Source of the DNA: an uncultured Rikenellaceae bacterium
Lineage (GTDB): Bacteria > Bacteroidota > Bacteroidia > Bacteroidales > VadinHA17
DNA length: 57,470 nucleotides
Assembly (NCBI GenBank): GCA_964387565.1
Contig: CAYLYN010000005.1
Location: forward strand, 1 to 57,470
Reading direction: 5' to 3'
Below, piece after piece: positions 1 through 20,016 of the stretch. The notes below the pieces were generated by a model, which was not told where the DNA came from, did no database searches, and saw only the letters and a program-made list of their open reading frames with translations. Each line of letters begins with the position of its first letter. Position 1 is the stretch's first letter. Position numbers and translations under genes: made by a program.

Positions 1-1143
1 ATGTCTGCCGTCCCTCCTGATACACCTGTTACAACACCGGTTGCTGATCCGACAGTTGCCACTCCCGTATTCAGGCTCGTCCATTCTCCCCCGCCTGTGG
101 CATTCGAAAGGGTTGTTGTTGATCCTGTGCATACTTCTGCTGTACCTGTTATGGCTGCAGGAAGAGGGTTTACTGTCACTTCGGCATCTGATGATGTAGC
201 TGAAACACAAATCCCGTTACTTACAACTGCCCTGTATTTAGTTGAAACAGTAAGATTCATTGCAGTGTATGTAGTGGCTGTATTGGCAATATCGGTGGAA
301 GAACCCCAGTTGTTTGTTGAATACTGCCATTTCTCTACTGTGCCTGTATGACCCGATAATGTAAGTACTGTGCTGTTCGTACCTGAACATACTGAAGCAT
401 CTCCTGTAACATCACCTCCAACAGAGGCTGCGTAAACTGTAACTGTCTGTGTTACATAACAACCTGTGGCTGTAATTGTATATTTGATATCGGCAGTGCC
501 ACCTGAAACACCTGTTACAACACCGGTTGCTGATCCGACAGTGGCAACTCCGGTATTAAGGCTGGCCCATTCTCCACCGCCTGTAGCATTTGATAGTGTC
601 GTTGTGGATCCAACACATACCTCGGCTGTGCCTGTTATGGGATCGGGCAGAGGGTTGACTGTTACTTCGGCATCGGTTGACGTTGCAGAAGAACATACTC
701 CACTCTTCACTACTGCCCTGTATTTGGTGGTCAAAGTAAGGTTAGTGGCTGTATAAGTTAAATTTGTATTACTTATATCAATTGGAGTTGTCCAGTTGTC
801 AGTTGAATACTGCCACTTCTCAACCGAACCTGTATGACCTGACAATGTTAGCACTGTACTGTTCGTACCTGAGCAAACTGCTGCATCTCCGGTAACATCT
901 CCTCCTACCGATGCAGGATCAACAGTAACTGATTGTGTAACAAAGCAGCCTGTGGCTGTAATGGTATATTTAATGTCAACAACACCTCCTGAAACACCTG
1001 TCACAATACCGGTTCCTGAACCAACAGTAGCTATTAAATCATCCAAACTGCTCCATGTGCCCCCACCTGTGGCATCAGCCAGTGTTGTTGTTGATCCTAC
1101 ACATACCTCAGCTGTACCCGTAATTGCGGCCGGAAGGGGATTG
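1..1143. repeat. Tandem coding repeats with a period of 486 bp (162 aa), about 2.3 copies inside the adhesin gene. The array continues beyond the window edge.
   Basis: The string cctgtggc occurs at 463-470 and again at 949-956, exactly 486 nt apart. The two full copies translate to near-identical module pairs, with most residues identical by eye. The three + strand shadow ORFs are also mutually similar. Confidence 0.85.
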
Positions 1144-1496
1144 ACTGTCACTGTAGCAACTGACGATGGATTTGGCCCACAATCAGCTGAAACAGAAGTA
1201 ATAACGCAATAATAATAAAATGTTCCTGCCGCAGAAGTATTAGGAGAATAAGTATCAGTTTGTGCTCCGTCTCCAGATCCAAGACTTGTTCCACCAGTAT
1301 TTGAATTTGTGGTATTCGAATACCACTGATAAGTATATCCTCCTGTACCACCTGAAGCAGATACAATTAGACTCACAGTCTCCCCGGCACATATAGTAGT
1401 GGTAGCTGCAGGTCCGGTAATAGTACAATCAACAGCGGATGCACTGAAAAAACCTGCCAACAAACTCAGTATTAATATTAAAATTCGCTTTTTCAT
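1..1496 (-). CDS. Secreted multi-repeat Ig-like/Big_2-like surface adhesin. Only the N-terminal 498 codons are present because the ORF runs off the left edge. It is absent from the supplied ORF track because there is no stop in the window.
   Basis: I translated the minus strand by hand from the ATG at 1496. It reads MKKRILILILSLLAGFFSASAVDCTITGP (signal peptide) and stays open to position 3. Two module types alternate. One is Big_2-like: ITGTAEVCVGSTTTL..GGG.W.S....ATV....G.VTGVSGG.ADIKYTITATGC. The other is Ig-like: GHTG.VEKWQYS......YRAVV..G.C.SATS.DAEVTVNP. The + strand ORFs 1-351, 466-756 and 952-1212 are antisense shadows of it. Confidence 0.8.
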   Translation of the reverse strand, partial: MKKRILILILSLLAGFFSASAVDCTITGPAATTTICAGETVSLIVSASGGTGGYTYQWYSNTTNSNTGGTSLGSGDGAQTDTYSPNTSAAGTFYYYCVITSVSADCGPNPSSVATVTVNPLPAAITGTAEVCVGSTTTLADATGGGTWSSLDDLIATVGSGTGIVTGVSGGVVDIKYTITATGCFVTQSVTVDPASVGGDVTGDAAVCSGTNSTVLTLSGHTGSVEKWQYSTDNWTTPIDISNTNLTYTATNLTLTTKYRAVVKSGVCSSATSTDAEVTVNPLPDPITGTAEVCVGSTTTLSNATGGGEWASLNTGVATVGSATGVVTGVSGGTADIKYTITATGCYVTQTVTVYAASVGGDVTGDASVCSGTNSTVLTLSGHTGTVEKWQYSTNNWGSSTDIANTATTYTAMNLTVSTKYRAVVSNGICVSATSSDAEVTVNPLPAAITGTAEVCTGSTTTLSNATGGGEWTSLNTGVATVGSATGVVTGVSGGTAD

Positions 1497-1548: not shown

Positions 1549-2802
1549 TCAGAACCTGAATTTTAATAAACTGATCATAGAATTACTCTCATATCTGTCT
1601 ATACCGACAGCATAAATATTTCCTGCTTCGTCTGATATTACATCATTAACCGACTGGCTCCCCGTACTTCCAAAAATGACTTGTTTTCCTGGTAAAAGGT
1701 TGCCTTCATCATCAGTAATAAAAACTATCATCCTGGAAGAACTTCCGCTACCGGCCTGACCAGCCATCACAAAGTAACTGGTCTTATACCTTGCAATGGA
1801 ATGGATTGAAAAAGAGACAGCGGATCCGGATGAGGATTCTATAGTTATAGCATGCTCATAAACCGGCTCCTCAAAGATATTCCGCTGCAATTCCCATACA
1901 TAGGCACTCTGGCCCGATGCTTCCGTACCATTAGTGGAAACAACCAGGTAACCATCGTCAAGCACTTCAATATCAGCTGCATTCTCCTCAGCAACGCCTC
2001 CTATTATCCTTTGCTGGTTGAAATTTCCCTGTAAGTCAATCTTTACCAGAAGGATATTATTAAGGCTCTGTAAATCAGATGTCTTTTGTGAATTGTCAGT
2101 TGTTGCAAGGACTATATATCCGCCACCGATATCCTCTTTTATTGTTACAGCATCATCATTCCCCGGGTAACCTGCGGCCCAGTTGCCGGTTTCCGACAGA
2201 TTATTATCAAGTTTCATCACAAGGATATCTTTCTTCCCTGCCACGTTCCCTGACGATTCAGTGGTGGCAACCCTATCTGCATCTGTTACACCCAGTACAA
2301 TAAATCCCCACGATGTCTTAAGCAGATCAACAGCATACTGATTATAATTATCGCCCGTTTTTTTATATACCTTTTGTGAGATAAGGCTACCCTGACCATC
2401 TGTCTTAACTATATATACATCCTTAAGTTTTGTTACGGCATCAACGGAATATCCCACACAGACAACAGACCCGTCATCAAGCACTACTGCCTTTGAACCA
2501 ACATTATATGATTCGTCTCCATAAAGATATTTCCATATCTGTTCCCCGTTATTATCAACTTTTATAAGCCCCAGCCTTTTAGAGGATTCTGCAGTGCTTA
2601 TCCTGTTTTCACCTTCAGTTCTTCTGACATCAGTGAGCTGCCCGGAAATAATAAACCCATCCCCGGCTTTTGCAATCCCGTAACCGATATCTTCCATGGC
2701 ATCACCATAGATCCTTACTATATTATTATTGATATCATCAGTCTTCCTGCATGAAGAGATAACAGCTGAAAACATCAATGTAAATAAAATTAACTTTCTC
2801 AT
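1549..2802 (-). CDS. Lipoprotein of unknown function with beta-propeller-like internal repeats
   Basis: The N-terminus MRKLILFTLMFSAVISSCRK is a signal II/lipobox-like sequence with Cys. A blade-like pattern recurs: LIKVDNNGEQIW, YIVKTDGQG, ILVMKLDNN, ILLVKIDLQGN, SLLKFRF. The stop lies 52 nt upstream of the adhesin start. Confidence 0.6.
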   Translation of the reverse strand: MRKLILFTLMFSAVISSCRKTDDINNNIVRIYGDAMEDIGYGIAKAGDGFIISGQLTDVRRTEGENRISTAESSKRLGLIKVDNNGEQIWKYLYGDESYNVGSKAVVLDDGSVVCVGYSVDAVTKLKDVYIVKTDGQGSLISQKVYKKTGDNYNQYAVDLLKTSWGFIVLGVTDADRVATTESSGNVAGKKDILVMKLDNNLSETGNWAAGYPGNDDAVTIKEDIGGGYIVLATTDNSQKTSDLQSLNNILLVKIDLQGNFNQQRIIGGVAEENAADIEVLDDGYLVVSTNGTEASGQSAYVWELQRNIFEEPVYEHAITIESSSGSAVSFSIHSIARYKTSYFVMAGQAGSGSSSRMIVFITDDEGNLLPGKQVIFGSTGSQSVNDVISDEAGNIYAVGIDRYESNSMISLLKFRF

Positions 2803-2805
2803 GAC

Positions 2806-3876
2806 CTACTGGTTCTTTTTTGAAGGTTTATAGAAGATCTGAGTATAACCGATGCTGAAATTCAGTGTGTTAATATTGAAATCATCATCAGCCAAATGAT
2901 AAGAACTAAGTTCGGCAGAACTGTGATCTGCCGTCGGAAGTGATGGCCTTACAGTCTGATTAAAGAGTCCGAAACCGGAACGGGCTTCTGCAAAAATATA
3001 ACCGCCTCTGGTCTTAAGTTTTACTCCTGCACCTGCCTGACCGAAAATATCCAGTGCTATCCTGGCATCCCTGCGGTTTATATCCGGACCTGTAACAGGC
3101 TGTCCGTTAATATCGGATGGACTAAATTCAGCTGTTGCAGTTGAGGAAAGCAAAATTGCAGGACCGGCACCCAGACGAACATAAGGTGTGATCTTTCCGA
3201 AATTCTTTATGTTATAATTTACAGAAACAGGTACTTCGATCCTGCTCTGCCGTTCATTATATTGCGATGTCCCGATGTTGAGTATCTTTTCTGTTTTTGT
3301 GAATGCGACCTGTGAGAATCCGGCTTCAGCATTCAGTTCAATTTTGCCTGTGAGCCTGAATTTTGCTTCAAGTCCACCGTACAGGTTCAGGGCATTAAAC
3401 GTGTACTGGCCTTCAGAAGAATTTCCCGATACTGACCGGTGGTCTATGAATGTGGTAAAGGGAAGATTGGTACCTAACCTTAGAGATATCTGTACAACAG
3501 GATCTACCTGAAAATTATTGTAAAGGTGAACAAACGAAGAATGATCCGTTTCACTTAGCTGATACTCCGGGTTTCTTTTAAGAAAATTGAGCATTGCTGA
3601 ATCGGCCTTTTCAAGCTCATCTTCAAACAGGTAGGTCTGAATGATAAGTTTATAAGCAGCCAGTGACTCTTCACGGTTAAATCCTGATTTAAGACACTCC
3701 TGAAGCAATCCGGCCACCTGCTCAACCTGGCCCCTGTCAAACAGGTTCTGCGCAGTCTGCAGCTTTTCGGCGCAGCTTCCAGCTTCTGCCTCCTGAGCCG
3801 ATAAAGCTACCGGGAAACAAGCCAGGAACAACAAGATGAGGCAATTTCGGATAAGACACTGAAAGAAAATTTTCAT
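2806..3876 (-). CDS. Outer-membrane protein with a signal peptide, a short TPR-like helical region and a beta-barrel
   Basis: The signal ends ...FPVALSAQE. Residues around 35-110 are helical and TPR-like (AQNLFDRGQVEQVAGLLQECL...AAYKLIIQTYLFEDELEKADSAM). The C-terminal two thirds show an alternating amphipathic beta pattern ending TLNFSIGYTQIFYK. There are only 3 nt between its stop and the next gene's start. Confidence 0.6.
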   Translation of the reverse strand: MKIFFQCLIRNCLILLFLACFPVALSAQEAEAGSCAEKLQTAQNLFDRGQVEQVAGLLQECLKSGFNREESLAAYKLIIQTYLFEDELEKADSAMLNFLKRNPEYQLSETDHSSFVHLYNNFQVDPVVQISLRLGTNLPFTTFIDHRSVSGNSSEGQYTFNALNLYGGLEAKFRLTGKIELNAEAGFSQVAFTKTEKILNIGTSQYNERQSRIEVPVSVNYNIKNFGKITPYVRLGAGPAILLSSTATAEFSPSDINGQPVTGPDINRRDARIALDIFGQAGAGVKLKTRGGYIFAEARSGFGLFNQTVRPSLPTADHSSAELSSYHLADDDFNINTLNFSIGYTQIFYKPSKKNQ

Positions 3877-3978: not shown

Positions 3979-6900
3979 TTATTTAATTGGATTCATTTTA
4001 ATATTCAGACTCTTTTCAGGACAGGTCTTCTCAAGAGGAATATCCCTGCCAACATAGGTATTCCATTCATCCTGGGTCATATTACGCGAAAGCTTGTTAC
4101 ATACATCCTGTACCAGGTTATCAACGTGTGCAGGACGGCTCACAAGGTTCTCCTTATCATCATAGGAACCTGATACAATAAGCTGCCCGTCAGGACTGAA
4201 CTGTATTACCATAACGAACTTTTCATGGTCATTAAAGGTTAAAGGAGGTTCAGTAAGATCAGTGATATCTTTAATATTGAATATTTTAAGCGTCTGATCG
4301 TTACTTGCGGTTGCCATCTGCTTAAGCCTGTTATTGAACTGTATATCATTAACCTGAGCGGTATGCGCTTTTACATCTGATATTTTTCTGCGCTGAATTA
4401 TATCCCATAGTTCAACTGTTCCGTTAACATCTCCAAGTGCCAGAATATTATTGTCAGGATTAAACCTCACTACTTTTATGTTTTTACCAACTGTTTCAAT
4501 CCTGAAATTATCTGCTTTATTTTCCTGGTTCCATACCACAACTCCTCCTTCACTATTTATCCCGGCTACATATTTTCCGTTAAGTGAAACATCAATAGAT
4601 GTAAGAGGCAAAGTACCATCAGTCAAATTTGAACTGGTCCGTGCCGATAGATCCCATTTAAGAACTTTTCCATCAAGCGAAGCTGAATAGAGATACTTAC
4701 CGTCATAAGAGAAAATAAGTGACTTAAGTTTACCCTTGTGCCCGGTCATCTCATATCCCTGACTGTTCCCTTTAAGTGACACCATTTTAATTGACGCATT
4801 ACTGCTACCCATGGCAAGCCATGAAGCATCAGGGCTCACTGTCAGAACCTCAATTATATCTGTTCCGGAGTATACTATCTGAAGTGACTGATCCTCTCCG
4901 TCGAGCGACCATTTCAATACCTTCCCGTCATATCCTGAGGTGAAGAACTCCCGTTTGCCGGGAACAAATGCAATACTTCTTATTCCACCTGTGTGGCCGT
5001 GGAACGATTTATAGTTTACATTTCCATAGTTTTTGGCGACATTATAAAGCCCGGCATAGATATCAGCATCGTTATCAATGCCTCCGTTATTCTTGTTAAA
5101 TATATAAGCCTGGTATGCAAGCAGAGACTGAAGGTCTTTCTGCCCCTGTACCTGTAATGACTTTATTGACATGGACTTACCTATTGACAGCATCCTGAGT
5201 CTGAGAGCAGCATTTCTCTGTTCAAGGGCAGTCTGTGCATTCTGGTCAGCTCTTAAACTTGCTCTCTTGGCAGAATCAGATTGTTCAAGTGCTATCTGCT
5301 GTTGCTGTAAAGCATAAGCCTCATTTTCAACTGCCAGTTTTCTCTGGGCTTCGGCAAATATCCTCTGCCGCTCCGCTTCTTCAGCATTCCTTGTAGCTAC
5401 TGTGGCGTTTGAGTCTGCCACTACCCTTGCTTCAATAGCTTCAACTGTAGATGAGTCAGCTCTTACCTTTTCTCTTTCAGCCTGTATCCTTCTCTCCTCA
5501 GCAAGTACCGTCTGCCTGTCGGCAGCAATCTTCTGAACGAAGGCAAAGAGCATGAATCCGACAGAAATGATAGCTGCAACTCCAAGGATCAGGGCAACAA
5601 TCCTTGTCCTTCTCATCTGCCGCTTCTGCAGTCTGATCTTATTCTCTTCCTCTTCCAGGTACTCCTTCTCACTTGTCCGCAGATAGACCATTGCACGTTC
5701 AAATGCCGGGTTATACCTTTCGGCCCATGCAAGTGTGGGCTTATGCTTATCGCGCCAGTTTATTGCAAGCTGAAGGTCAGGTGGTCTCCACAGACTCGTC
5801 TTGCCCTGCTGGTACATCGCCGAAGCTTCCGAAAGCCTTAAATACATCTGCACTGATGCAGCCTCATCATCGACCCACTCCCTGAGCCTGTCCCATAAAC
5901 GCATAAGACTTTCGTGTGACAGATCGATAATGGAATTATCATCAAGAGACACATTCTGCCTTGGTGTAATAAATGATCTTGATGGTATCCTGAATTTCTC
6001 AACCACTTCAAAAAGATCCTCACTTGTACATCCTGCAATGGATTTTATTTCAGTTACGGAAGAGGGGTGACGCAGACCTTTGTTATCTGAACCTTTTTCT
6101 GTTATTGTTTTGAACATAATTTCGCAAACCTCCCTGCCTTTAGGGCTAAGCTCTTCATAAGCTTCGTTTGCATGCAGCGACATCGCATCGCTCATTGTTC
6201 CAACCGAGTCATAATCGGTCTTATCAATAGGTCTGTCAGGATCATCAAGTTCCTGCCAGCGGTTCCAGGTTCTCATCATAGCATGCTGAAGAACAGGCAG
6301 CTGATCAGTTCTGTCACCAATGTCCTTTAGAAGTATTTCTACCAGTCTGGGATCGATCTTAGCCCCGGCATAATTCACAGGACCTGTTATAGCTTCCCGG
6401 TAGTTTTCAGTCCCCATATGAGGGACGAGATAATTGCTGTTGTTTATTAATTGTGTAAGCCCCTGATAATGTGCACATTCTCCAATAAAATCGGAACGCA
6501 TTGTAACTATTGTGAAAACATTAACAGCGCTCTGGCCCACGGAATTTACAACACAATCAACGAATTTTGCAGTTGCTGCATGACTTGAATCACCTTTACC
6601 TAGTGAACTGTAGCGGAATAACTCTTCAAACTGGTCGACAACAATCAAAACCTTTCCCCCATCTCTCTGTATCATCTTTCTGACAGCTTCCGTAATTCCA
6701 TCCGGACTGGTGAGAAGCTCTTTCATAATGTTTTCTTTCTTTGCTGCCATGCCAGAGCCATTAGCAGATCCCTCTGCCATTGCCTCAGCCAGATTTCCAA
6801 AAGGATCATTCCCCGGTCTGAAAGATATTATCTTCCATGGTCCTGAATTACTTGTATCAAGCTTTCTTACCCTGGGTAAAACGCCGCAGTAGATGAGAGA

Positions 6901-7074
6901 AGATTTACCGCTTCCTGAGGCTCCTATTACTGTAACAAACCTGTTATTCAACAGTTTGCCCAATACTTCCTCACTCTCACCAGCCCGGCCGAAAAAGAGA
7001 TCACTCTCTTCCGGGGCAAAAGGTCTCAATCCGGGGAAGGGATTGAATTTCTTTGTTTCTGTTATCGGACCCAT
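3979..7074 (-). CDS. STAND-class P-loop NTPase (NACHT/nSTAND-like) with a winged-helix-like region, a single TM helix, a long coiled coil and WD40 repeats
   Basis: The N-terminal motif is NPFPGLRPFAPEESDLFFGRAGE. Walker A is VIGASGSGKSS and Walker B is VLIVVDQFEELF. A hydrophobic helix IVALILGVAAIISVGFMLFAFV sits near aa 490-510 (nt ~5545-5610) and is preceded by KRQMRRTR. A Q/A/E/R-rich heptad region of roughly 130 aa follows. WD40 units include HGHTGGIRSIAF..SGYDGKVLKWSL, TGHKGKLKSLIFS..SASLDGKVLKWDL and AHTAQVNDIQF..TASNDQTLKIFNI. Confidence 0.8.
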   Translation of the reverse strand: MGPITETKKFNPFPGLRPFAPEESDLFFGRAGESEEVLGKLLNNRFVTVIGASGSGKSSLIYCGVLPRVRKLDTSNSGPWKIISFRPGNDPFGNLAEAMAEGSANGSGMAAKKENIMKELLTSPDGITEAVRKMIQRDGGKVLIVVDQFEELFRYSSLGKGDSSHAATAKFVDCVVNSVGQSAVNVFTIVTMRSDFIGECAHYQGLTQLINNSNYLVPHMGTENYREAITGPVNYAGAKIDPRLVEILLKDIGDRTDQLPVLQHAMMRTWNRWQELDDPDRPIDKTDYDSVGTMSDAMSLHANEAYEELSPKGREVCEIMFKTITEKGSDNKGLRHPSSVTEIKSIAGCTSEDLFEVVEKFRIPSRSFITPRQNVSLDDNSIIDLSHESLMRLWDRLREWVDDEAASVQMYLRLSEASAMYQQGKTSLWRPPDLQLAINWRDKHKPTLAWAERYNPAFERAMVYLRTSEKEYLEEEENKIRLQKRQMRRTRIVALILGVAAIISVGFMLFAFVQKIAADRQTVLAEERRIQAEREKVRADSSTVEAIEARVVADSNATVATRNAEEAERQRIFAEAQRKLAVENEAYALQQQQIALEQSDSAKRASLRADQNAQTALEQRNAALRLRMLSIGKSMSIKSLQVQGQKDLQSLLAYQAYIFNKNNGGIDNDADIYAGLYNVAKNYGNVNYKSFHGHTGGIRSIAFVPGKREFFTSGYDGKVLKWSLDGEDQSLQIVYSGTDIIEVLTVSPDASWLAMGSSNASIKMVSLKGNSQGYEMTGHKGKLKSLIFSYDGKYLYSASLDGKVLKWDLSARTSSNLTDGTLPLTSIDVSLNGKYVAGINSEGGVVVWNQENKADNFRIETVGKNIKVVRFNPDNNILALGDVNGTVELWDIIQRRKISDVKAHTAQVNDIQFNNRLKQMATASNDQTLKIFNIKDITDLTEPPLTFNDHEKFVMVIQFSPDGQLIVSGSYDDKENLVSRPAHVDNLVQDVCNKLSRNMTQDEWNTYVGRDIPLEKTCPEKSLNIKMNPIK

Positions 7075-7091
7075 AATTAATAATTTCCGTA

Positions 7092-9074
7092 CTAAACTCT
7101 AACTCCTATCACCAGGATATCATCTATCTGTTCATTATCTCCTTTCCATTCATTAAGTCTGCGGTTAAGAGCCTCTTTCTGCTGGCTCATTGGCAGGGAA
7201 TGCACTTCAAGGAGAAGTTCCTGAAACCTCCTGAGCATGAATTTTTTATTATCCGGACCGCCAAACTGGTCGGGATATCCATCGGAAAACATATAAATAC
7301 AATCTCCATCAATAATATCTATCATATTGTTTGAAAATGGTTTAGGAACACCACCCTCATATACTCCGATAGGGTATCTGTCGCCTTTGTATAAGGTAAC
7401 CTCATCATTTCTGATCATTACCATAGGATTGTTTGCCCCGGCAAATTCCAGTTTTTTTGCTTCCAGATCAAAGATACAGAGGGCCATATCCATACCGTCC
7501 TTGATAGAATTCTCTGAGAGATTTTCATTAAGTGTATTGATGACACCTGCATTTAGTTCATCCATAATTGAGGCAGCAGACCTGGCTTTCTTTACGCTTA
7601 CGGCATAGTTAAGCTGGTTAAACCCTACAATCGACATAAATGCACCAGGCACTCCATGCCCGGTACAGTCTACAGCAGCTATCATGCATAAACCATCTAC
7701 ACCATTCATCCAGTAAAAATCACCGCTGACAATATCCTTGGGCAGATAAAGTACAAAGTATTCACTGAAACAGGCATCGATAACATTAAATGACGGCAAT
7801 ATTGCATTTTGTATCCTTCTGGCATAATAAATGCTGTCCATAATGTGCTTTTTCTGCTCTTCAATCTCCTCTTTTTGCTTTTCTATCTTCTCAGTCCTTT
7901 CCTTCACCTTCTCCTCCAGCTCATAGGTATAACTTTCAAGCTGGGCAATCATCATATTGAATTTCTCTGTAAGCCTTGTTATTTCGTTATTGCCTGAAAC
8001 CTCTGCTCTCTCTCTCAGATCACCGTTTGTGATCCTGTCAACATTCTCAACAAGCTTCTTTATAGGCAGAGTTATAACCTTTGTTTTGCGGTATATCACT
8101 CCGCTAAGTACCAGCATTGTTACAAAAAATACCAGGATAAACCTGAGTGCCTCATTCCTGAAGAGCTCCTGCTGGGCAGTCCGGTCAGAAATGATCCTGA
8201 TAACCGAACCCTTGTACAGGCTAGAACTGGATTTATCCTTGCCTGTTGCACGTTCCATATAGATATAATTGTAATGATACCACTTATCACCCTCCTGCTG
8301 CATTAGCTCAATGGTATCCTTGTACTGAAATACCTGCAGCAGCATATCGTCCTGGTTATCAATCCTCAGAACATTTTTATTCATGCTGAAAGGTTCGTCA
8401 GCCATCAGGAATAGTTCGACATCAATAATCCCTTCAGTTTCACTTTTCAATTCAGCCTTGGTATCTTCAATAGCCTGGACGATATCGTCCACCTGTTTTG
8501 AATAGGCTCCAAGCTCAATAATATATTTCTTATCACGGGTAGCCTGGTAGGAGAATTTCTTAGGCCTTTTGGTCGCCTGTTCAATAGCAAACAGTTCTGA
8601 AACAAATTCACCTGATTTCTGTATATCCTGCAGGGTTTTTTTCATATTCTCCCCGAGGGAAAATAGATTAAAACCCAGGTCTTGTTTGAAGGTAGTATTT
8701 ATGATTACCCCGTCGGATGAAATAATATAGATATCCTCATTCTGGTTATCCATTCCTATCTCATCAGCAATTTTAACCAGATCAGCTTTCTCAATACCAT
8801 CAGTATTTGCAAAATATCTATCGACAAGCAGAGAGCTCAGTTCCCTGAACCTGTTATTATACTGATCATCAATAATATTCGTGGCAATATCCTGAAATTT
8901 AAGAATTTTAGTGACCTCATTTGCCAGCAGTTTATTTTTCTCATCAGTACCGGTACTGAGAATTGAACGTGTACGTGTAAAATTGATTCCTGCAATAACA
9001 AGAAGAGCAACAACAGTGGGTATTGCTATATTGAAAATGAACTGCCGGAATATTGTCGTCTTTCTCAGGGCCAT
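7092..9074 (-). CDS. Membrane sensor PP2C (SpoIIE/RsbU-type) serine phosphatase with TM1, an extracytoplasmic Cache-like domain, TM2, HAMP, a coiled coil and a PPM domain
   Basis: There are two TM helices: FIFNIAIPTVVALLVIAGINF and ALRFILVFFVTMLVLSGVIY. The HAMP-like segment is LPIKKLVENVDRITNGDLRERAEVSGNNEITRLTEKFNMM. The PPM motifs are RRIQNAILP, SGDFYWM, AAVDCTGHGVPGAFMS and MFSDGYPDQFG. Its stop is 17 nt from the STAND gene start. Confidence 0.8.
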   Translation of the reverse strand: MALRKTTIFRQFIFNIAIPTVVALLVIAGINFTRTRSILSTGTDEKNKLLANEVTKILKFQDIATNIIDDQYNNRFRELSSLLVDRYFANTDGIEKADLVKIADEIGMDNQNEDIYIISSDGVIINTTFKQDLGFNLFSLGENMKKTLQDIQKSGEFVSELFAIEQATKRPKKFSYQATRDKKYIIELGAYSKQVDDIVQAIEDTKAELKSETEGIIDVELFLMADEPFSMNKNVLRIDNQDDMLLQVFQYKDTIELMQQEGDKWYHYNYIYMERATGKDKSSSSLYKGSVIRIISDRTAQQELFRNEALRFILVFFVTMLVLSGVIYRKTKVITLPIKKLVENVDRITNGDLRERAEVSGNNEITRLTEKFNMMIAQLESYTYELEEKVKERTEKIEKQKEEIEEQKKHIMDSIYYARRIQNAILPSFNVIDACFSEYFVLYLPKDIVSGDFYWMNGVDGLCMIAAVDCTGHGVPGAFMSIVGFNQLNYAVSVKKARSAASIMDELNAGVINTLNENLSENSIKDGMDMALCIFDLEAKKLEFAGANNPMVMIRNDEVTLYKGDRYPIGVYEGGVPKPFSNNMIDIIDGDCIYMFSDGYPDQFGGPDNKKFMLRRFQELLLEVHSLPMSQQKEALNRRLNEWKGDNEQIDDILVIGVRV

Positions 9075-9084
9075 CAGATAAATA

Positions 9085-12000
9085 TTACGCTTCGTTACTA
9101 TTTATGTAATTAAAAATTTCAATTGAGCTTTCCGGAAATTGATAATCAAAATCCTCTGCTACAGCAAGTGAAAGGGAATAGAAGGATCCTGTCCCTTTGT
9201 TTCCACCCGCAAATTCTTTCTCATCCAACTTGCCTTCATAATGAATAATCACTTTCCCATTTCCCTGTTTCTGTGAAACAGGCCAGATAATGGAATTATC
9301 CATTATGACTGAAGAAAGTGTTGGAAAATCCTTGTGAAACCGCAGATTTTCTGCAAGAGTAAGTATTTCATCCTCCAGAATCCCGGGGAAGCACTTCGTC
9401 AGGAACAAAGTCTTCTCAAAAAGCAACTCTTCGCCTGCCACTTCTCTTCCGGCTATCTGGTCGAGCCTGCTTCTGGCTGTGGCAGGCAGGCGAGGCGAAA
9501 CTGATTTGTATAGCTCTTTTCCTGTTCCTGAAACAATCCTTACAGCCTCTTCGCGCAGAATTTCCTCCGGACTAAAAAGAAGGGCAACCACTGATTCAGT
9601 CAATGCTTCGTCTTCTATCTCTCTTATGCTCCTGAGAACAGAAGCTTTTGTCCAGATGCTTACAAGGTTATAGTCACGGTTTATTATATCCTCAATCAGT
9701 CTTTTATATTCCGGCACCTCAACAGGGAAGAACTGGAAAAGATTCTTAAGCTTTTCCTCATCAGGAACGGCATCGACGAGCATTATCAGTTTCTGCTTTA
9801 TGGATTCATCTATCACTATATCAATCATCTCCAGTGCGAAGTTGACACTTTCAACAGTTTCACTGTCAAGATTTTCCTGTATTTTTACTATAGATCCTTT
9901 GTCGTAAGAAATTGACAGAAGGTTAAAAAGATAACGTCTCCATCGGGATATCTCCTTATTAATAACCTTCAGGAGCACCTGGTCATTATTTTTTTCAATG
10001 CTCCTCCTGGCTGAAAGATTCCATGTCATAATCCCGATTGTCTCTGTTATGAGTTGGTGAAGCTTATCTTTCTCCTCCATTGAAGGGCTGAAGTCTATAT
10101 CAAGAAGACATTTCAGGGCAAGTTCCTTAAGCTGCCTCGAATTTGACCATAACCGGGAAAAGAGAAATAGCCTTGTCTCCGGAGTATTTATCTTTCCAAG
10201 GAGCCTTAATATTGTCATGCTTGTATTAATATTGCCAGAGGAAGCAAGATAAAATCTCTCCAGCTCTTCCCCTGCCTCATTGCCGAAAGTCTTGAGTACA
10301 GCAAATGCATCAGTCTCCAGGCCTTTGAAATTCAGGCACTCACAAACTTCCGGAAGCATATCCTTAAGCTTAAATTTTCCTATCAGGAAAACACCCATCC
10401 TCTTAGCCTCTAATGAGTTATCGCGCAACAACCTGAGAATCTCTGTTGTTTGAGGCATTCTGGATCCTTCAAGTACTTTTCTCGCCGAAACAAGTTTATC
10501 TGATCCTGTTCTGCCGGCTGAAGAAATTTCCTCAAGTCGTTTCAGCAGTTCTCCGGCAAGCCGTCGGTTATTATCATCTATCGTCCCAAGACTATTCACT
10601 TTCCTGAGTACCGGTACTAGTGTTGTGTCATTCCCTGAGGATGAATGATCAATAATCTTCCTGAAATACCATTTGTTTATTCCACCTTCAAGGGTGGAAA
10701 AATCGCCTGAAATAAGATTAAAATAATCCTTTCTGAAAGCACTCTCTGCGGCAAATCTGCTATTTAGCTCTGCTTTAAAGACTCCCTGATCGGGTAAAAC
10801 ACTTTCCTCAGTAGTTTCAAGAGCTTTCCTGATGGACTTTCGGTACTCATTATAAAGCATCACTGCAACAAATACCCAGATTATTATGAATATGAAGAGT
10901 ACCCATGAAAAATGAATGAGCTTAATAAAACTCAGAACACCCATTCCGGCAAGGATCAGACCTGATGAAAGAGCGGCTATTTCATTTACAGTACCATCCA
11001 TTACCGATTGAATCTCATACCTTATCTTCTCATTTATGGTCTGATATATCACTTTGAATGAAGGTGATTCAATAGAATCTTTAAGTGATTTGGAGAATAG
11101 CCTGCTAAGAGCAAGCAGAAGGAAAAAAATGATGAATCCACTGGCAGCTTCAGGAGTATATCCCATTGTCATCCCGATGATTATGGCAACAGCAGTAAAC
11201 ACTGCAACCAGAACCGGAGAAATTGCGAGGCAGGTTCTCAGACCATAATTTCTTATGAGATAAGAGAATACCAGAAGCTTTACAAGAAGAGTAAAGATCA
11301 TCATGGAACCTGTAAATATTCCAAGGAACCTGGCCATATCTTCCTCTGCCGGATACTGGGCCCTTGTAACTGCCATAAAAGAATACTGTACAAAGAATGC
11401 CGTAATAACAGAAAGCGCCACAAATATCCCCATTACCCTTGTGTACCTGTCTTCCCTGAAAGTTGCAATAACTGATTTCTTCTTCTCTTTTTCACCGGGC
11501 AGTTTCTCTTCCTTTCCTGAAACAAAACTGAATCTTGATCCTATGATTATCTGTACAATTGTAGCTAACAGAACTGATAAGGCGCTAATAAGCAGAATAT
11601 TATGAGACTCGAACCGGAAAGCCAGCAATACAGGAATTGTGTAACAACTTATAATTATCCCAATTACCAGTCCTGCATCAACCAGACCGAACAGCCTTTT
11701 ACCCTGCCTCAGAGTAAATAAACGTCCTGCTGTTCCCCAGAACCCCAGAGCAGCAAGAATATTGAGAGGGCCAAGCATAATAAAAACAAGAAAGATCACC
11801 CATTTCGCAGAAAAGAGGATTACAGCAGTCCACAGCAACAAGCTCAGTATTGTAACAAAAGCAAGGTTAAGGATTGCGAAGTTTCTGAATTTCATTCTTG
11901 TCTGTAATCCGGTATAGAGGGCTGTAAGAAATATTCCTGCAAAACCGGAAACCACATAACCCCGGGCCATCATCTTCTCATCAAATATCGAAAGGAAAAG

Positions 12001-12126
12001 CGAGTGAGCGCTGATGTCAAATGCACCGAAAAAAATACCTAAAAAAACAGATTGGGTAAGAAGCATTAAAACCATAGATTCCTCACCGGATTCAATTCCA
12101 AGTGCAGAAAGCAGTTTTTCTCTCAT
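9085..12126 (-). CDS. Large fusion protein with an N-terminal ~12-TM transporter-like domain (MFS/TLC nucleotide-carrier-like), HEAT/ARM-like repeats and a C-terminal cNMP-binding-like domain
   Basis: About 430 aa are very hydrophobic, with around 12 predicted helices. A ~450-aa helical-repeat region follows. The last ~120 aa (LFEKTLFLTKCFPGILEDEILTLAENLRFHKDFP...IIHYEGK) resemble a cyclic-nucleotide-binding fold. Its stop is 10 nt from the PP2C gene start. The domain calls are by eye only. Confidence 0.55.
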   Translation of the reverse strand: MREKLLSALGIESGEESMVLMLLTQSVFLGIFFGAFDISAHSLFLSIFDEKMMARGYVVSGFAGIFLTALYTGLQTRMKFRNFAILNLAFVTILSLLLWTAVILFSAKWVIFLVFIMLGPLNILAALGFWGTAGRLFTLRQGKRLFGLVDAGLVIGIIISCYTIPVLLAFRFESHNILLISALSVLLATIVQIIIGSRFSFVSGKEEKLPGEKEKKKSVIATFREDRYTRVMGIFVALSVITAFFVQYSFMAVTRAQYPAEEDMARFLGIFTGSMMIFTLLVKLLVFSYLIRNYGLRTCLAISPVLVAVFTAVAIIIGMTMGYTPEAASGFIIFFLLLALSRLFSKSLKDSIESPSFKVIYQTINEKIRYEIQSVMDGTVNEIAALSSGLILAGMGVLSFIKLIHFSWVLFIFIIIWVFVAVMLYNEYRKSIRKALETTEESVLPDQGVFKAELNSRFAAESAFRKDYFNLISGDFSTLEGGINKWYFRKIIDHSSSGNDTTLVPVLRKVNSLGTIDDNNRRLAGELLKRLEEISSAGRTGSDKLVSARKVLEGSRMPQTTEILRLLRDNSLEAKRMGVFLIGKFKLKDMLPEVCECLNFKGLETDAFAVLKTFGNEAGEELERFYLASSGNINTSMTILRLLGKINTPETRLFLFSRLWSNSRQLKELALKCLLDIDFSPSMEEKDKLHQLITETIGIMTWNLSARRSIEKNNDQVLLKVINKEISRWRRYLFNLLSISYDKGSIVKIQENLDSETVESVNFALEMIDIVIDESIKQKLIMLVDAVPDEEKLKNLFQFFPVEVPEYKRLIEDIINRDYNLVSIWTKASVLRSIREIEDEALTESVVALLFSPEEILREEAVRIVSGTGKELYKSVSPRLPATARSRLDQIAGREVAGEELLFEKTLFLTKCFPGILEDEILTLAENLRFHKDFPTLSSVIMDNSIIWPVSQKQGNGKVIIHYEGKLDEKEFAGGNKGTGSFYSLSLAVAEDFDYQFPESSIEIFNYINSNEA

Positions 12127-19239: not shown

Positions 19240-20016
19240 TCATAATGTAACTGCAATAACGTGCATAACACTCCTGCTGTTGTAATTATCACTCCCCTTA
19301 AGATCGAAATTCCAGGTCCACTGTTCCCTGTTGCTTCCTGATGGTAATTCGGTTACAAGGGTAGGAATCTTTTTGACAACACCTGACCGCTGTGAGATAA
19401 CCTCCTCGAAGTCAGTAATCAGTACTGATCTGTGCTTTGATAAAAACCTGATATGACTCTCCTGTATTGCTATTCTGAACAGGAACATCTCATCATCGCT
19501 GACTACTGTTTTTTTCCTGAGATATCTTACAGGCAATACCTCAAGCTGCGTTATGAGGTTCAGTGAAATTATCATTCCGGGATCACTTTCCGGGATATAA
19601 TCAGGGATTTTAATTCCTTCAAGACTATCGGTTTTCCTGAAAAAGATCTTGCTCCTGATTTTTTTCTCTACTTGTTCTACCAGTCCCCCGGTAAGATCAC
19701 TTTCAATAAGTTCCACATTTGCTATCGCTCCGGCCTGCTTTATCACATCAGGCGGATGAATGATGTCGATGAGTGATATCTTCGCCGTTCTTTCAAGCAT
19801 TTCTGCTATGGGAAGCTCAAGAAGCCATCCGCTTCCAAGAACTGTCACTTTTTCAGGTTTAAAAATATCCATAGCCCTGATGATATAGCTTCTGCACTTT
19901 TCAAGATGGCTGTCCCATCCGGATTCCTGATGGAGGTGACGGTAAATAAGGCCGCTCTGGTAATCGTAGTAACCCATGCGGTTTAAGATTCGCCGGTATG
20001 ATTCGGAATAAGCCAC
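19240..20016 (-). CDS. Uncharacterised Rossmann-fold protein resembling a class I SAM-methyltransferase
   Basis: VTVLGSGWLLELP resembles motif I, ISLIDIIHPPD is an acidic beta2 end, and MIISLNLITQL is also present. Its GTG start shares 1 nt with the upstream stop (TAGTG). The function is not recognisable by eye. Confidence 0.45.
   Translation of the reverse strand: MAYSESYRRILNRMGYYDYQSGLIYRHLHQESGWDSHLEKCRSYIIRAMDIFKPEKVTVLGSGWLLELPIAEMLERTAKISLIDIIHPPDVIKQAGAIANVELIESDLTGGLVEQVEKKIRSKIFFRKTDSLEGIKIPDYIPESDPGMIISLNLITQLEVLPVRYLRKKTVVSDDEMFLFRIAIQESHIRFLSKHRSVLITDFEEVISQRSGVVKKIPTLVTELPSGSNREQWTWNFDLKGSDNYNSRSVMHVIAVTL

Follow-up and report, generated by a model that had tools for sequence, protein, structure and literature searches.

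A STAND NTPase with a predicted transmembrane helix and WD40 propeller, encoded among envelope genes in an uncultured Rikenellaceae bacterium

What could a STAND NTPase do when a hydrophobic helix divides its switch module from its WD40 propeller, and on which side of the membrane would the propeller lie? The question is raised by a gene in a 57,470-nucleotide stretch (the window) of contig CAYLYN010000005.1 (assembly GCA_964387565.1) from an uncultured Rikenellaceae bacterium. The gene is a single ORF for 1031 aa at 3979-7074, where the first-pass annotation had placed it, and it lies on the minus strand, which that annotation had left out; the motifs quoted there (FFGR, Walker A, Walker B and KRQMRRTR) were all found when the translation was checked.

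Domain architecture and predicted topology

The gene and its parts are as follows.
3979..7074, minus strand, whole STAND gene: nSTAND1 NTPase, TM helix, coiled-coil stalk, WD40 propeller and Cys-pair tail (ORF translation, Pfam, AF2, Foldseek)
5800..7041, minus strand, STAND NTPase module with NBD, helical and winged-helix-like region, residues 12-425, predicted cytoplasmic (PF20703 nSTAND1)
6898..6924, minus strand, Walker A/P-loop GASGSGKSS, residues 51-59 (translation check; invariant G/K/S columns)
6622..6648, minus strand, Walker B LIVVDQFEE, residues 143-151 (translation check)
5602..5703, minus strand, juxtamembrane helix ending in the K/R cluster KRQMRRTR, residues 458-491, predicted cytoplasmic (AF2, K/R count)
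5536..5601, minus strand, single TM helix IVALILGVAAIISVGFMLFAFV, residues 492-513, 22 residues (hydropathy, homologue conservation)
5152..5535, minus strand, predicted periplasmic coiled-coil stalk, residues 514-641 (heptad listing, AF2, length conservation)
4132..5010, minus strand, seven-bladed WD40 beta-propeller, residues 689-981, predicted periplasmic (Pfam, AF2, Foldseek)
3982..4131, minus strand, C-terminal tail C..RNMT..EW..YVG.DIP.E.TC with Cys992 and Cys1018 (conservation in homologues)

The first-pass annotation had described a complete STAND NTPase at the N-terminus, and this agrees with the match of Pfam PF20703 nSTAND1 to residues 12-425 (E=3.8e-92; 310 bits, cut-off 27), with the conserved Walker motifs and with an Apaf-1-like fold. 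In 100 homologues G51, G54, G56, K57, S59 and D147 are invariant, and Q148, F149, E150 and E151 of the Walker B motif are at least 90% conserved. The AF2 model of the whole protein has a mean pLDDT of 84, with a value of ~90 in the NTPase module and low confidence at residues 509-558, i.e. the TM exit and the stalk start. Its top Foldseek matches are full-length Apaf-1 structures (3shf/3sfz/3j2t, E~1e-20). The family is very large, with more than 10,000 clusters at 50% identity (E<1e-30), and uncharacterised.

Residues 492-513 are the sole hydrophobic segment of the protein (Kyte-Doolittle 19-residue mean 2.81, no other value above 1.6), with seven K/R within 15 residues on the N-terminal side, and in the AF2 model a helix of residues 458-498 runs unbroken into it. 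The single TM helix that had been proposed to split the protein is kept in 120/120 close homologues and in 147/150 distant representatives (41-62% identity), and its uncharged core has 22-23 residues among homologues. Moreover, residues 481-515 have a mean identity of 83% to the query in the close set (60-99% identity), and the TM sequence is rich in small residues (G/A/S, ILGxAAIISxGF), which points to packing between helices rather than to a passive anchor. Counts of K+R, like the hydropathy values simple calculations, are 7.0 on the N side and 3.8 on the C side in 120/120 close homologues and 6.8 and 3.3 in 135/139 representatives, so that the N side is the richer in 255/259 homologues overall. 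Because of this positive-inside bias and the ATP requirement of the NTPase, the WD40 part is predicted to lie outside the cytoplasm and the N-terminus inside, the orientation that had been put forward before.

The heptad-rich segment noted after the TM helix consists of 17 consecutive in-phase heptads (residues 514-632), of which 16 have Ala at the same position, with Gln/Asn four residues before the fixed Ala. A518, A525, A539, A567, A588 and A616 are at least 90% conserved in a region that is overall only 28% identical, and AF2 models a helix at residues 556-641. With 128 helical residues the stalk would measure about 19 nm, long enough to approach the outer membrane, as had been supposed, and homologues vary little in its length (162±11 aa across 73 representatives). 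The multi-blade propeller at the end has seven blades: many Pfam WD40 and propeller models match residues ~677-980, AF2 gives 28 strands at 689-981 with pLDDT ~90, and Foldseek matches the PkwA WD40 domain 5yzv with a TM-score of 0.90. In addition, Cys992 and Cys1018 of the tail, the sole Cys of the C-terminal 518 residues, recur in 83% and 82% of 100 homologues, respectively, as would fit a disulfide formed in an oxidising compartment. That WD40 domains can be periplasmic is accepted for Bacteroidota, with PorE as the precedent (PMC12773672).

Neighbouring genes and inheritance

The genes around the STAND gene are listed below.
9085..12126, minus strand, NTT (TLC/MFS-like, ~12 TM)-HEAT protein, 1013 aa (weak MFS_1 and HEAT_2 matches)
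7092..9074, minus strand, two-TM sensor with HAMP and PP2C (SpoIIE) phosphatase, SiaA-like (Pfam HAMP, SpoIIE)
2806..3876, minus strand, outer-membrane protein with signal peptide, ~90-aa TPR-like N-domain and small beta-barrel (Pfam OMP_b-brl_2, AF2)
1549..2802, minus strand, predicted lipoprotein with signal peptide ...VISSC, 417 aa, repeated DGGYIV-like motifs (sequence)
1..1496, minus strand, 5' part of a giant secreted Ig-repeat protein running off the window (signal peptide and repeats)

The most constant partner of the STAND gene is the NTT-HEAT gene, found on the same strand and adjacent or near in 35/42 loci with enough flank; a TLC domain was detected in its orthologues, and a cNMP_binding domain in those of Cytophagales. 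The HAMP-PP2C gene lies upstream, with 17 nt between its end and the STAND start, and encodes TM helices at 7-34 and 307-331; it scores 260 bits with the NCBIfam SiaA model, under the model's cut-off, and as a neighbour it is limited to part of Bacteroidales. On the other side, the barrel protein (AF2 pLDDT 88, four helices and then the barrel) has its N-domain at nt 3502-3795 with Cys35/Cys61, and Foldseek relates the barrel to OmpA, OmpW and OmpT-like barrels. In 55/74 loci of Bacteroidota and Acidobacteriota the gene that directly follows STAND carries the TPR-like N-domain. In other classes and phyla this domain is fused to Plug and TonB-dependent-receptor barrels, which is the type of STAND-linked barrel in Chitinophagia, Sphingobacteriia and Acidobacteriota. 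The 417-aa lipoprotein gave no confident family in Pfam and has syntenic homologues in Bacteroidales and Cytophagales. At the position of the giant protein, related loci encode secreted proteins of 1200-2800 aa, with a T9SS Por_Secre_tail in L001 and L002. Adjacency with envelope genes is in itself no proof of contact between the products.

Thus, the survey of homologues that had been proposed found both a conserved TM helix and recurrent neighbours: the STAND gene is linked across phyla to NTT-HEAT(-cNBD), the barrel with the TPR-like N-domain, the lipoprotein and giant secreted proteins. Since these conserved partners belong to the envelope side and to the cytoplasmic side, the STAND protein would be the sole component with parts on both. 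In some lineages of Bacteroidales just NTT-HEAT and STAND remain, with no outer-membrane protein or lipoprotein nearby, so the outer-membrane partner may be dispensable or encoded elsewhere. As for an effector, the statement that none is recognisable holds for the STAND protein and its lineage, and the best tblastn match to a TIR-like gene in the window had E=0.1; it does not hold for 41/82 related loci, where a TIR_2+DUF4062 (TIR+DrHyd) gene lies immediately upstream of STAND.

The cluster occupies a fixed parE-parC-aroK synteny across Bacteroidales, and the surroundings in the window are housekeeping genes. In locus L001 the identities are 87% for ParC, 57% for AroK and 73% for STAND, with similar values in 13 further syntenic loci, and STAND thus evolves more slowly than AroK. 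The GC content of the window is flat, with no island composition signal; PADLOC gave no significant match, its two P-loop matches being sub-significant (E 0.004-0.006); and close homologues differ no more in the WD40 part than in the NTPase. Vertical inheritance, the housekeeping synteny, the PADLOC result and the lack of sensor hypervariability speak against the antiphage framing of the first-pass annotation, and the gene looks like a conserved envelope-signalling gene and not a mobile phage defence.

Proposed mechanism and alternatives

We assume, with a probability of roughly 0.5, that the protein is a bitopic inner-membrane, Apaf-1-like nSTAND1 NTPase acting as a trans-envelope switch. The NTPase module, which takes up about 490 residues at the N-terminus, would be cytoplasmic, one TM helix would pass through the inner membrane, and the ~19 nm Ala-heptad coiled coil would hold the seven-bladed WD40 domain across the periplasm, towards the outer membrane. 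There the propeller might dock to, or monitor, a complex of the barrel protein with the TPR-like N-domain and the lipoprotein, possibly also with the giant secreted protein, and the stalk and TM helix would couple this complex to the nucleotide state or oligomerisation of the NTPase. The NTPase could then act on partners in the cytoplasm, which in the window lineage are likely to be the HEAT tail of the NTT-like transporter and the HAMP-PP2C phosphatase, and in many other lineages the TIR+DrHyd protein. Ring oligomerisation is the usual mode of STAND proteins, and this counts against a membrane-tethered, stalked switch.

The same parts could also work from the inside outwards, with the NTPase sensing and switching and the stalk and WD40 domain as the output, which we regard as a minority possibility. 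The trigger might be, for example, a nucleotide or cyclic-nucleotide state received via the NTT-HEAT-cNBD partner or the PP2C, and the output the capture or release of the barrel N-domain, the lipoprotein or a giant adhesin, like the LapD-LapG control of LapA. In at least 18 loci a giant secreted, T9SS-tailed protein indeed keeps its place behind the cluster, the STAND protein has no effector domain, the continuous geometry of helix, TM and coiled coil could transmit either way, and the WD40 part shows the same degree of conservation as the NTPase, which points to a constant endogenous partner rather than to a variable ligand. However, the giant proteins share no homology with each other, and the effector-type TIR+DrHyd gene upstream in half of the relatives fits better with an outside-in flow. 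The STAND proteins that have been characterised receive their input through the C-terminal repeats and have the NTPase as the switch, and Apaf-1 is the top fold match here. The hydrophobic helix might, on the other hand, not span the membrane, leaving a soluble Apaf-1-like STAND protein with a buried helix and a cytoplasmic propeller. The low AF2 confidence around residues 509-558 would allow this, and the source table of PMC8195603 has some 'nSTAND1+BetaPropeller' entries without TM; yet 22-23 uncharged residues (KD mean 2.8) with a K/R cluster alongside in 255/259 homologues, the position behind a long cytoplasmic helix and ahead of a long amphipathic stalk, outside any globular domain, and the co-encoded outer-membrane protein and lipoprotein, which fit an envelope location, make it highly improbable.

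A sensor for conflict or abortive infection would have the propeller detect an invader component or an envelope breach (phage entry machinery, a predator or a toxin are candidate triggers) and STAND switch on effectors directed at nucleotides or NAD; the window copy would then be an effector-less derivative, or the NTT-like transporter would be the effector. The TIR_2+DUF4062 gene directly upstream in so many loci agrees with this, and the cNMP-binding domain of the Cytophagales NTT-HEAT proteins could receive a nucleotide signal, for which the nucleotide-signal logic of Pycsar or Thoeris type is an analogy. According to Kaur et al. 2021 (PMC8195603), the nSTAND1 clade was defined within predicted counter-invader systems, and the source data of their Fig. 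2 list the exact architecture with TIR+DrHyd or caspase partners; together with the TIR+DrHyd genes of the relatives, this 'counter-invader' placement suggests that the ancestral role may be conflict-related. Nevertheless, for the window copy such a role seems unlikely: it has neither a TIR-like gene anywhere in the window nor an effector domain, only sub-significant PADLOC matches, a vertically inherited housekeeping position in Bacteroidales with slower evolution than AroK, and no island composition or sensor hypervariability. Furthermore, the TIR-containing versions of Cytophagales also lie within the same conserved multigene envelope cluster, and a 2026 survey (PMC13581612) left 391/589 STAND clades outside its defence-associated class. 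The first-pass alternative that the TM helix itself is the effector, assembling into a pore or disrupting the membrane when the NTPase oligomerises, found no support and is very doubtful. The helix is unusually conserved and small-residue-rich, but this is equally expected of a signalling dimer or oligomer; a single central helix that has to enter the membrane during translation makes a poor latent toxin, the behaviour of the gene is that of a conserved core gene, and there would be no explanation for the outer-membrane partner, the propeller and the strongly conserved stalk of constrained length.

Relation to described systems

The first-pass annotation knew of no characterised member with this topology; the architecture itself is already on record, as 'nSTAND1+TM+BetaPropeller' is listed 278 times in the source data of PMC8195603, often after a TIR+DrHyd gene; a Bacteroidales entry there is preceded by an 11-TM+cNMP gene, i.e. 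the NTT-HEAT partner. The window gene has the same order of NTPase, TM and propeller; however, the catalogued form typically has an upstream TIR+DrHyd gene or an N-terminal caspase, whereas the window copy has neither and is preceded by HAMP-PP2C instead. In the searched text of that paper the topology, stalk and outer-membrane partner are absent from the discussion. The 1013-aa neighbour belongs to the NTT-HEAT(-cNBD) fusions, a widespread, uncharacterised family (PMC5381601; Major, Embley & Williams 2017), whose link to a STAND NTPase was not reported there and is seen here.

Apaf-1, the best structural match, likewise has an NBD-helical-winged-helix module followed by WD40 propellers, but it shares about 12% sequence identity with the window protein, which has no NB-ARC Pfam match. 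Moreover, Apaf-1 is soluble and has a CARD and two propellers, whereas the window protein has no CARD, one seven-bladed propeller, and a TM helix and ~130-residue coiled coil between switch and propeller. With Avs1-5 and bNACHT it shares the superfamily and the tripartite logic of switch and repeat sensor; unlike them, it has no fused effector and no significant PADLOC match, is vertically inherited outside any defence island, and is predicted to span the membrane with its sensor outside the cytoplasm. The layout resembles FecA-FecR-FecI, in which a barrel with a periplasmic N-domain, an N-in/C-out single-pass transducer and a cytoplasmic output are combined, although there is no homology: the N-domain in the window is TPR-like and helical, not STN, the barrel is small and OmpA/OmpW-like whereas FecA is a TonB-dependent transducer, and the transducer is a STAND NTPase without an encoded ECF sigma factor, whereas FecR is an anti-sigma factor. 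PknD-type proteins are bitopic Ser/Thr kinases with an extracytoplasmic beta-propeller. Planctomycete Ser/Thr kinases also combine an ATP-using cytoplasmic N-domain, one TM and C-terminal WD40/TPR repeats that are predicted to be periplasmic (PMC11032199), but they have a kinase instead of a STAND switch, and both the long Ala-heptad stalk and a conserved outer-membrane partner are missing. In addition, nSTAND1-TM-TPR variants exist.

Domain architecture and predicted topology of the STAND protein

The interval 3979-7074 holds a single open reading frame of 1031 aa on the minus strand, which the first-pass annotation had not specified; a plus-strand reading was rejected because its translation is riddled with stops. 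In the encoded STAND protein, the Pfam profile nSTAND1 (PF20703) covers the entire NTPase module at residues 12-425 with 310 bits against a curated cut-off of 27.1 (E=3.8e-92, profile positions 1-375 of 379), and the WD40 and beta-propeller models of Pfam cover residues ~677-980. No NCBIfam model matched the protein. The motifs quoted in the first-pass annotation, Walker A GASGSGKSS, Walker B LIVVDQFEE and KRQMRRTR, are all where it had placed them. In sequence, the P-loop (GxxGxGKS) and the acidic residue of Walker B are intact, and all of 100 homologues have G51, G54, G56, K57, S59 and D147. Searches of Pfam and NCBIfam found nSTAND1 and WD40 only and no fused effector domain (nuclease, TIR, protease etc.), the NTPase beginning at residue 12.

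A fold search was needed because the PDB sequence search with the N-terminal 530 aa gave nothing meaningful. The AlphaFold2 (AF2) model built from 100 homologues has a mean pLDDT of 84, with a confident NTPase module (~90 at residues 10-480), a helix (458-498) that continues directly into the transmembrane (TM) segment, a stretch of low confidence (509-558), a helix (556-641) followed by two short ones, and 28 strands that make up seven blades at residues 689-981. The three best full-length matches of Foldseek against the PDB were full-length Apaf-1 (3shf, 3j2t and 3sfz), the top one aligned over ~1050 columns, and the propeller matched the WD40 domain of PkwA with a TM-score of 0.90. The modelled chain has a STAND-type fold, in which a nucleotide-binding domain, helical and winged-helix domains are followed by superstructure-forming repeats. 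Pfam, hydropathy, the AF2 model and a listing of the heptads together bear out the first-pass description of a STAND NTPase, a TM helix, a heptad-rich segment and a WD40 domain.

The sole hydrophobic segment is IVALILGVAAIISVGFMLFAFV at residues 492-513, with a Kyte-Doolittle 19-residue mean of 2.81, and 7 of the 15 residues before it are K or R. The K+R count is 7 on the N side vs 3 on the C side in the query, 7.0 vs 3.8 in the close homologues (120/120) and 6.8 vs 3.3 in the representatives (135/139), so that the N side is richer in 255/259 homologues. The STAND protein bears the marks of a bitopic N-in/C-out inner-membrane protein, namely one TM helix, a positive-inside bias and no N-terminal signal peptide, and this orientation is predicted here. 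The first-pass proposal that the WD40 domain lies outside the cytoplasm is well backed by conservation and context, and it keeps the rank of a prediction. The TM helix is followed by a region of regular heptads:

5152-5535, minus strand: coiled-coil stalk, residues 514-641

In the stalk, 17 heptads (514-632) follow one another in phase, and 16 of them have Ala at a fixed position. Its core pattern is unusual, since Gln/Asn mostly stands four residues before the fixed Ala, and the 16-17 heptads run on with no stutter. With a rise of about 0.148 nm per residue, the helix of 128 residues would reach about 19 nm. In 73 divergent representatives, 162±11 residues lie between the end of the TM helix and the propeller entry, and stalk identity to the query is merely 28% in the distant set; the conserved feature of the stalk is its length, not its sequence. 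Moreover, the C-terminal tail contains C992 and C1018, the only cysteines of the C-terminal half, which are conserved in 83% and 82%, respectively, of 100 homologues.

A large family in the published catalogue

STAND/NLR proteins are textbook cytosolic receptors. The family described here, by prediction, puts its repeat sensor across the membrane, and it is very large. The best 120 database hits are all 1016-1040 aa long, 67-100% identical to the query and from Bacteroidales or Bacteroidia metagenome bins, and all 120 have the TM helix, the sequence of which is itself conserved. An exhaustive search with residues 1-530, in which family size was counted as 50%-identity clusters matching this N-terminal query, gave 44,427 representative proteins at E<=1e-3, of which 10,446 reached E<=1e-30. 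Among the best 150 representatives (most 41-62% identical), the TM helix is at the same place in 147, the three exceptions being two fragments and one protein with the helix elsewhere. A WD40 domain follows the helix in 113 of these 150, and TPR arrays follow it in others. One homologue is named 'High-affinity carbon uptake protein Hat/HatR', which gave no literature lead and was treated as an uninformative legacy annotation.

The name nSTAND1 comes from Kaur et al. 2021 (PMC8195603), where it has one main-text mention. The source data of their Figure 2 (PMC8195603, supplementary file 1) list 'nSTAND1+TM' 412 times and 'nSTAND1+TM+BetaPropeller' 278 times, and the latter is the architecture of the window protein. 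The operons listed there (PMC8195603) include 'TIR+DrHyd-> nSTAND1+TM+BetaPropeller' from Bacteroidetes, Verrucomicrobia and Acidobacteria, 'CASPASE+nSTAND1+TM+BetaPropeller' from actinobacteria, and '11xTM+cNMP-> nSTAND1+TM+BetaPropeller' from one Bacteroidales bin. The topology or its consequences are not discussed in the searched text of Kaur et al. 2021 (PMC8195603) and its 2020 companion paper, nor in the DGR paper (PMC10907252) or the 2026 STAND survey (PMC13581612). The architecture, listed 278 times without such discussion, is therefore catalogued but uncharacterised. The first-pass remark that no characterised member of this topology is known stands; the design itself, which it implied to be unrecorded, was already in the source data of Kaur et al. 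2021. The window protein thus belongs to a known, computationally defined kind, and the novelty of the architecture is weakened by the published catalogue and the family size. What is new here is the conserved link of the STAND gene to an outer-membrane barrel N-domain and an orphan NTT-HEAT transporter, the ruler-like stalk, and evidence that the TIR-less variant is inherited vertically. Hitherto the family existed solely as strings in a supplementary table, and if the predicted topology is true, NLR-type switching would be extended to extracytoplasmic sensing.

Gene cluster and conserved neighbours

The STAND gene lies within a co-directional run of genes with short gaps:

9085-12126, minus strand: NTT-HEAT protein, an NTT/TLC-like (NTT/MFS-like) 12-TM protein with a HEAT tail, 1013 aa
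7092-9074, minus strand: two-TM HAMP-PP2C (SpoIIE) phosphatase, ending 17 nt before the STAND start
2806-3876, minus strand: outer-membrane protein with a signal peptide, directly after the STAND gene; its N-domain at 3502-3795
1549-2802, minus strand: predicted lipoprotein, 417 aa, with repeated 'DGGYIVxG'-like motifs
1-1496, minus strand: 5' part of a gene that runs off the left edge, encoding the signal peptide and tandem Ig-like repeats of a giant secreted protein

Upstream of the cluster are aroK and topoisomerase IV-like parC/parE, and farther along are mutS2-like, plsC-like, lplA, PAP2, obg, adk, hpt and purE genes, with a flat GC content of 0.39-0.43. A 258-aa ORF at 19240-20016 on the minus strand, for which Pfam gave nothing at E<=1e-5, shares about 50 nt with the end of the MutS2-like gene. 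Scans for sigma-70 promoters and terminators, a method ill-suited to Bacteroidota, gave sites no more numerous than in shuffled sequence.

The neighbourhood was compared in 82 related loci (L-numbered below), of which two surround close homologues and 80 come from GTDB species genomes, out of >582 matching stretches. The most constant neighbour is the NTT-HEAT gene, present on the STAND strand in 35/42 loci with enough flank. Its orthologues match the TLC nucleotide-transporter family, and a C-terminal cNMP-binding domain (cNBD) was matched in Cytophagales orthologues only and not in the NTT-HEAT protein of the window. The NTT-HEAT(-cNBD) family is widespread and has been described as uncharacterised (Major et al. 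2017, PMC5381601). Several Bacteroidales (L003, L005-L008, L029, L036, L077 and L082) have a minimal cluster of NTT-HEAT and STAND between aroK and gpmI, with no PP2C, TIR, outer-membrane protein or lipoprotein, and there the STAND protein still has its TM helix, stalk and WD40 domain.

On the envelope side, the outer-membrane protein comes immediately after the STAND gene in 55 of 74 loci among the 82 collected, and its conserved part is a ~90-residue N-terminal domain. The AF2 model, built with homologues from the protein search (pLDDT 88), has four TPR-like helices with two conserved Cys, then a small OmpA/OmpW-like barrel. A fusion of this N-domain to a Plug and TonB-dependent-receptor barrel of about 870 aa replaces the small-barrel protein in Chitinophagia, Sphingobacteriia and Acidobacteriota. 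This TPR-like domain, which is covered by no Pfam family, always adjoins a STAND gene, whether on small or TonB-receptor-type barrels. No confident family was found for the 417-aa lipoprotein, which is possibly a beta-propeller; its homologues were detected in 14/67 loci at E<=1e-5, an undercount because they are divergent. In L055 and L070, the outer-membrane protein and the lipoprotein are each represented by two to four tandem paralogues surrounding a single STAND gene, which suggests diversification of the envelope partners. Furthermore, in at least 18 related loci the lipoprotein gene is followed at once by one for a secreted protein of 1200-2800 aa, with a T9SS Por_Secre_tail in L001 and L002; since these proteins share merely weak, repeat-level similarity across loci and are not homologous, they are counted as conserved by position, not by sequence.

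The HAMP-PP2C gene, which only some of the Bacteroidales have in the cluster, resembles SiaA (260 bits vs an NCBIfam cut-off of 700), and its product has an unassigned ~270-aa periplasmic domain; no STAS or kinase partner was seen near it. In 41 of the 82 loci, a ~500-aa TIR_2+DUF4062 gene, the 'TIR+DrHyd' of Kaur et al., is immediately upstream of STAND and often overlaps it, for example:

L057, 8462-9970: TIR_2+DUF4062 gene, upstream of STAND
L015, 8506-9957: the same
L046, 8451-9950: the same
L074, 8511-10013: the same

These loci are from Bacteroidota, Acidobacteriota, Cyanobacteria and one proteobacterial bin. Some Bacteroidales keep a degenerate copy (L010, 8599-9972), and the nearest Bacteroidales loci lack the gene. 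It is likewise absent from the whole window (tblastn of five TIR-like partners, best E=0.1), where the position directly upstream in the catalogued two-gene system is taken by HAMP-PP2C, 17 nt away. The TIR+DrHyd gene has been lost in the window lineage.

Descent of the gene and a possible trans-envelope switch

In 14 related loci with the parC-aroK anchor, the STAND gene always keeps its place after parE-parC-aroK, and its identity to the window protein tracks that of ParC and AroK (87% for ParC, 57% for AroK and 73% for STAND in L001; 82%, 56% and 69%, respectively, in L002). Among close homologues, the WD40 domain (73% identity) is no more variable than the P-loop region (65%), and the helical/winged-helix region is the highest (84%). 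PADLOC gave just two sub-significant, P-loop-level hits for the STAND protein, mad3 and mad8 (E=0.004-0.006 over ~20 residues), and neither the curated model match, nor the fused effector, nor the defence-island or patchy mobile context of antiphage STAND proteins (Avs, bNACHT) was found. The antiphage framing of the first-pass annotation therefore fits the window copy poorly: identities that track vertical descent, a WD40 domain that is not hypervariable, the lack of a significant defence match and the housekeeping neighbours argue against a mobile antiphage gene, and the neighbourhood analysis adds evidence that in Bacteroidales the STAND gene is a conserved core gene, not mobile defence. 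A conflict-type origin or role is still possible for the wider family, because relatives have the TIR+DrHyd partner. Overall, the first-pass interpretation is partly supported.

The STAND protein is the only component of the cluster with predicted parts on both sides of the inner membrane. Its candidate partners without signal peptides are cytoplasmic, namely TIR+DrHyd, the PP2C domain and the HEAT-cNBD tail; those with a signal peptide or lipobox belong to the envelope, namely the lipoprotein and the barrel that carries the TPR-like N-domain. The simplest reading is that the STAND protein is a trans-envelope switch. Beside the observed domains, conservation, periodicity and synteny of the gene, we infer for this switch an orientation, contacts, a direction of information flow and an output: the propeller on its length-conserved stalk would contact the outer-membrane complex, the continuous helix-TM-coiled coil would couple this contact to the NTPase, and the NTPase would act on the cytoplasmic partners. 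A more far-reaching reading, with a probability of roughly one in five, is an undescribed phylum-wide NLR-like pathway, in which a barrel (small or TonB-receptor-like) reports a surface event through its dedicated TPR-like periplasmic N-domain to the WD40 domain at the tip of the periplasm-spanning, ruler-like stalk, and the STAND NTPase beneath the membrane turns on nucleotide-based outputs. Where the pathway is complete, TIR+DrHyd would generate or use up a nucleotide signal, and the cNMP-binding tail of the NTT-type nucleotide transporter would sense it.

The rival reading of inside-out control, in which the STAND protein governs a periplasmic or outer-membrane partner, is regarded as rather unlikely. 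It is just as unlikely that the protein is a conflict sensor whose TIR effector is gone or whose effector is the transporter, and the core-gene behaviour of the window copy is set against this. That the TM helix itself is the effector, as the first-pass annotation had offered, is very improbable for a helix leading into a stalk of conserved length. Equally hard to credit, given its hydropathy, its near-universal presence and the charge bias around it, is a hydrophobic helix that does not span the membrane, although the AF2 model is of low confidence at residues 509-558.

If the trans-envelope pathway is true, the STAND protein would be the first demonstrated case of an NLR-type receptor with extracytoplasmic sensing, and the orphan NTT-HEAT family would gain a function; the cluster gives these widespread transporters their first functional lead. 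The neighbourhood also supplies testable partners on both sides of the membrane, namely the outer-membrane barrel N-domain, the lipoprotein, NTT-HEAT-cNBD, TIR+DrHyd and PP2C. FecA-FecR cell-surface signalling is a parallel of layout alone, without homology: the outer-membrane N-domain has no STN match, the genes scanned around the STAND gene contain no FecR or sigma-70 ECF domain, and the window cluster does not have the make-up of a FecA/FecR/FecI system. A periplasmic WD40 domain, as predicted for the STAND propeller, is accepted in Bacteroidota for PorE, and the topology predicted for the STAND protein has also been described, again as a prediction, for kinase-TM-WD40/TPR proteins of Planctomycetota.
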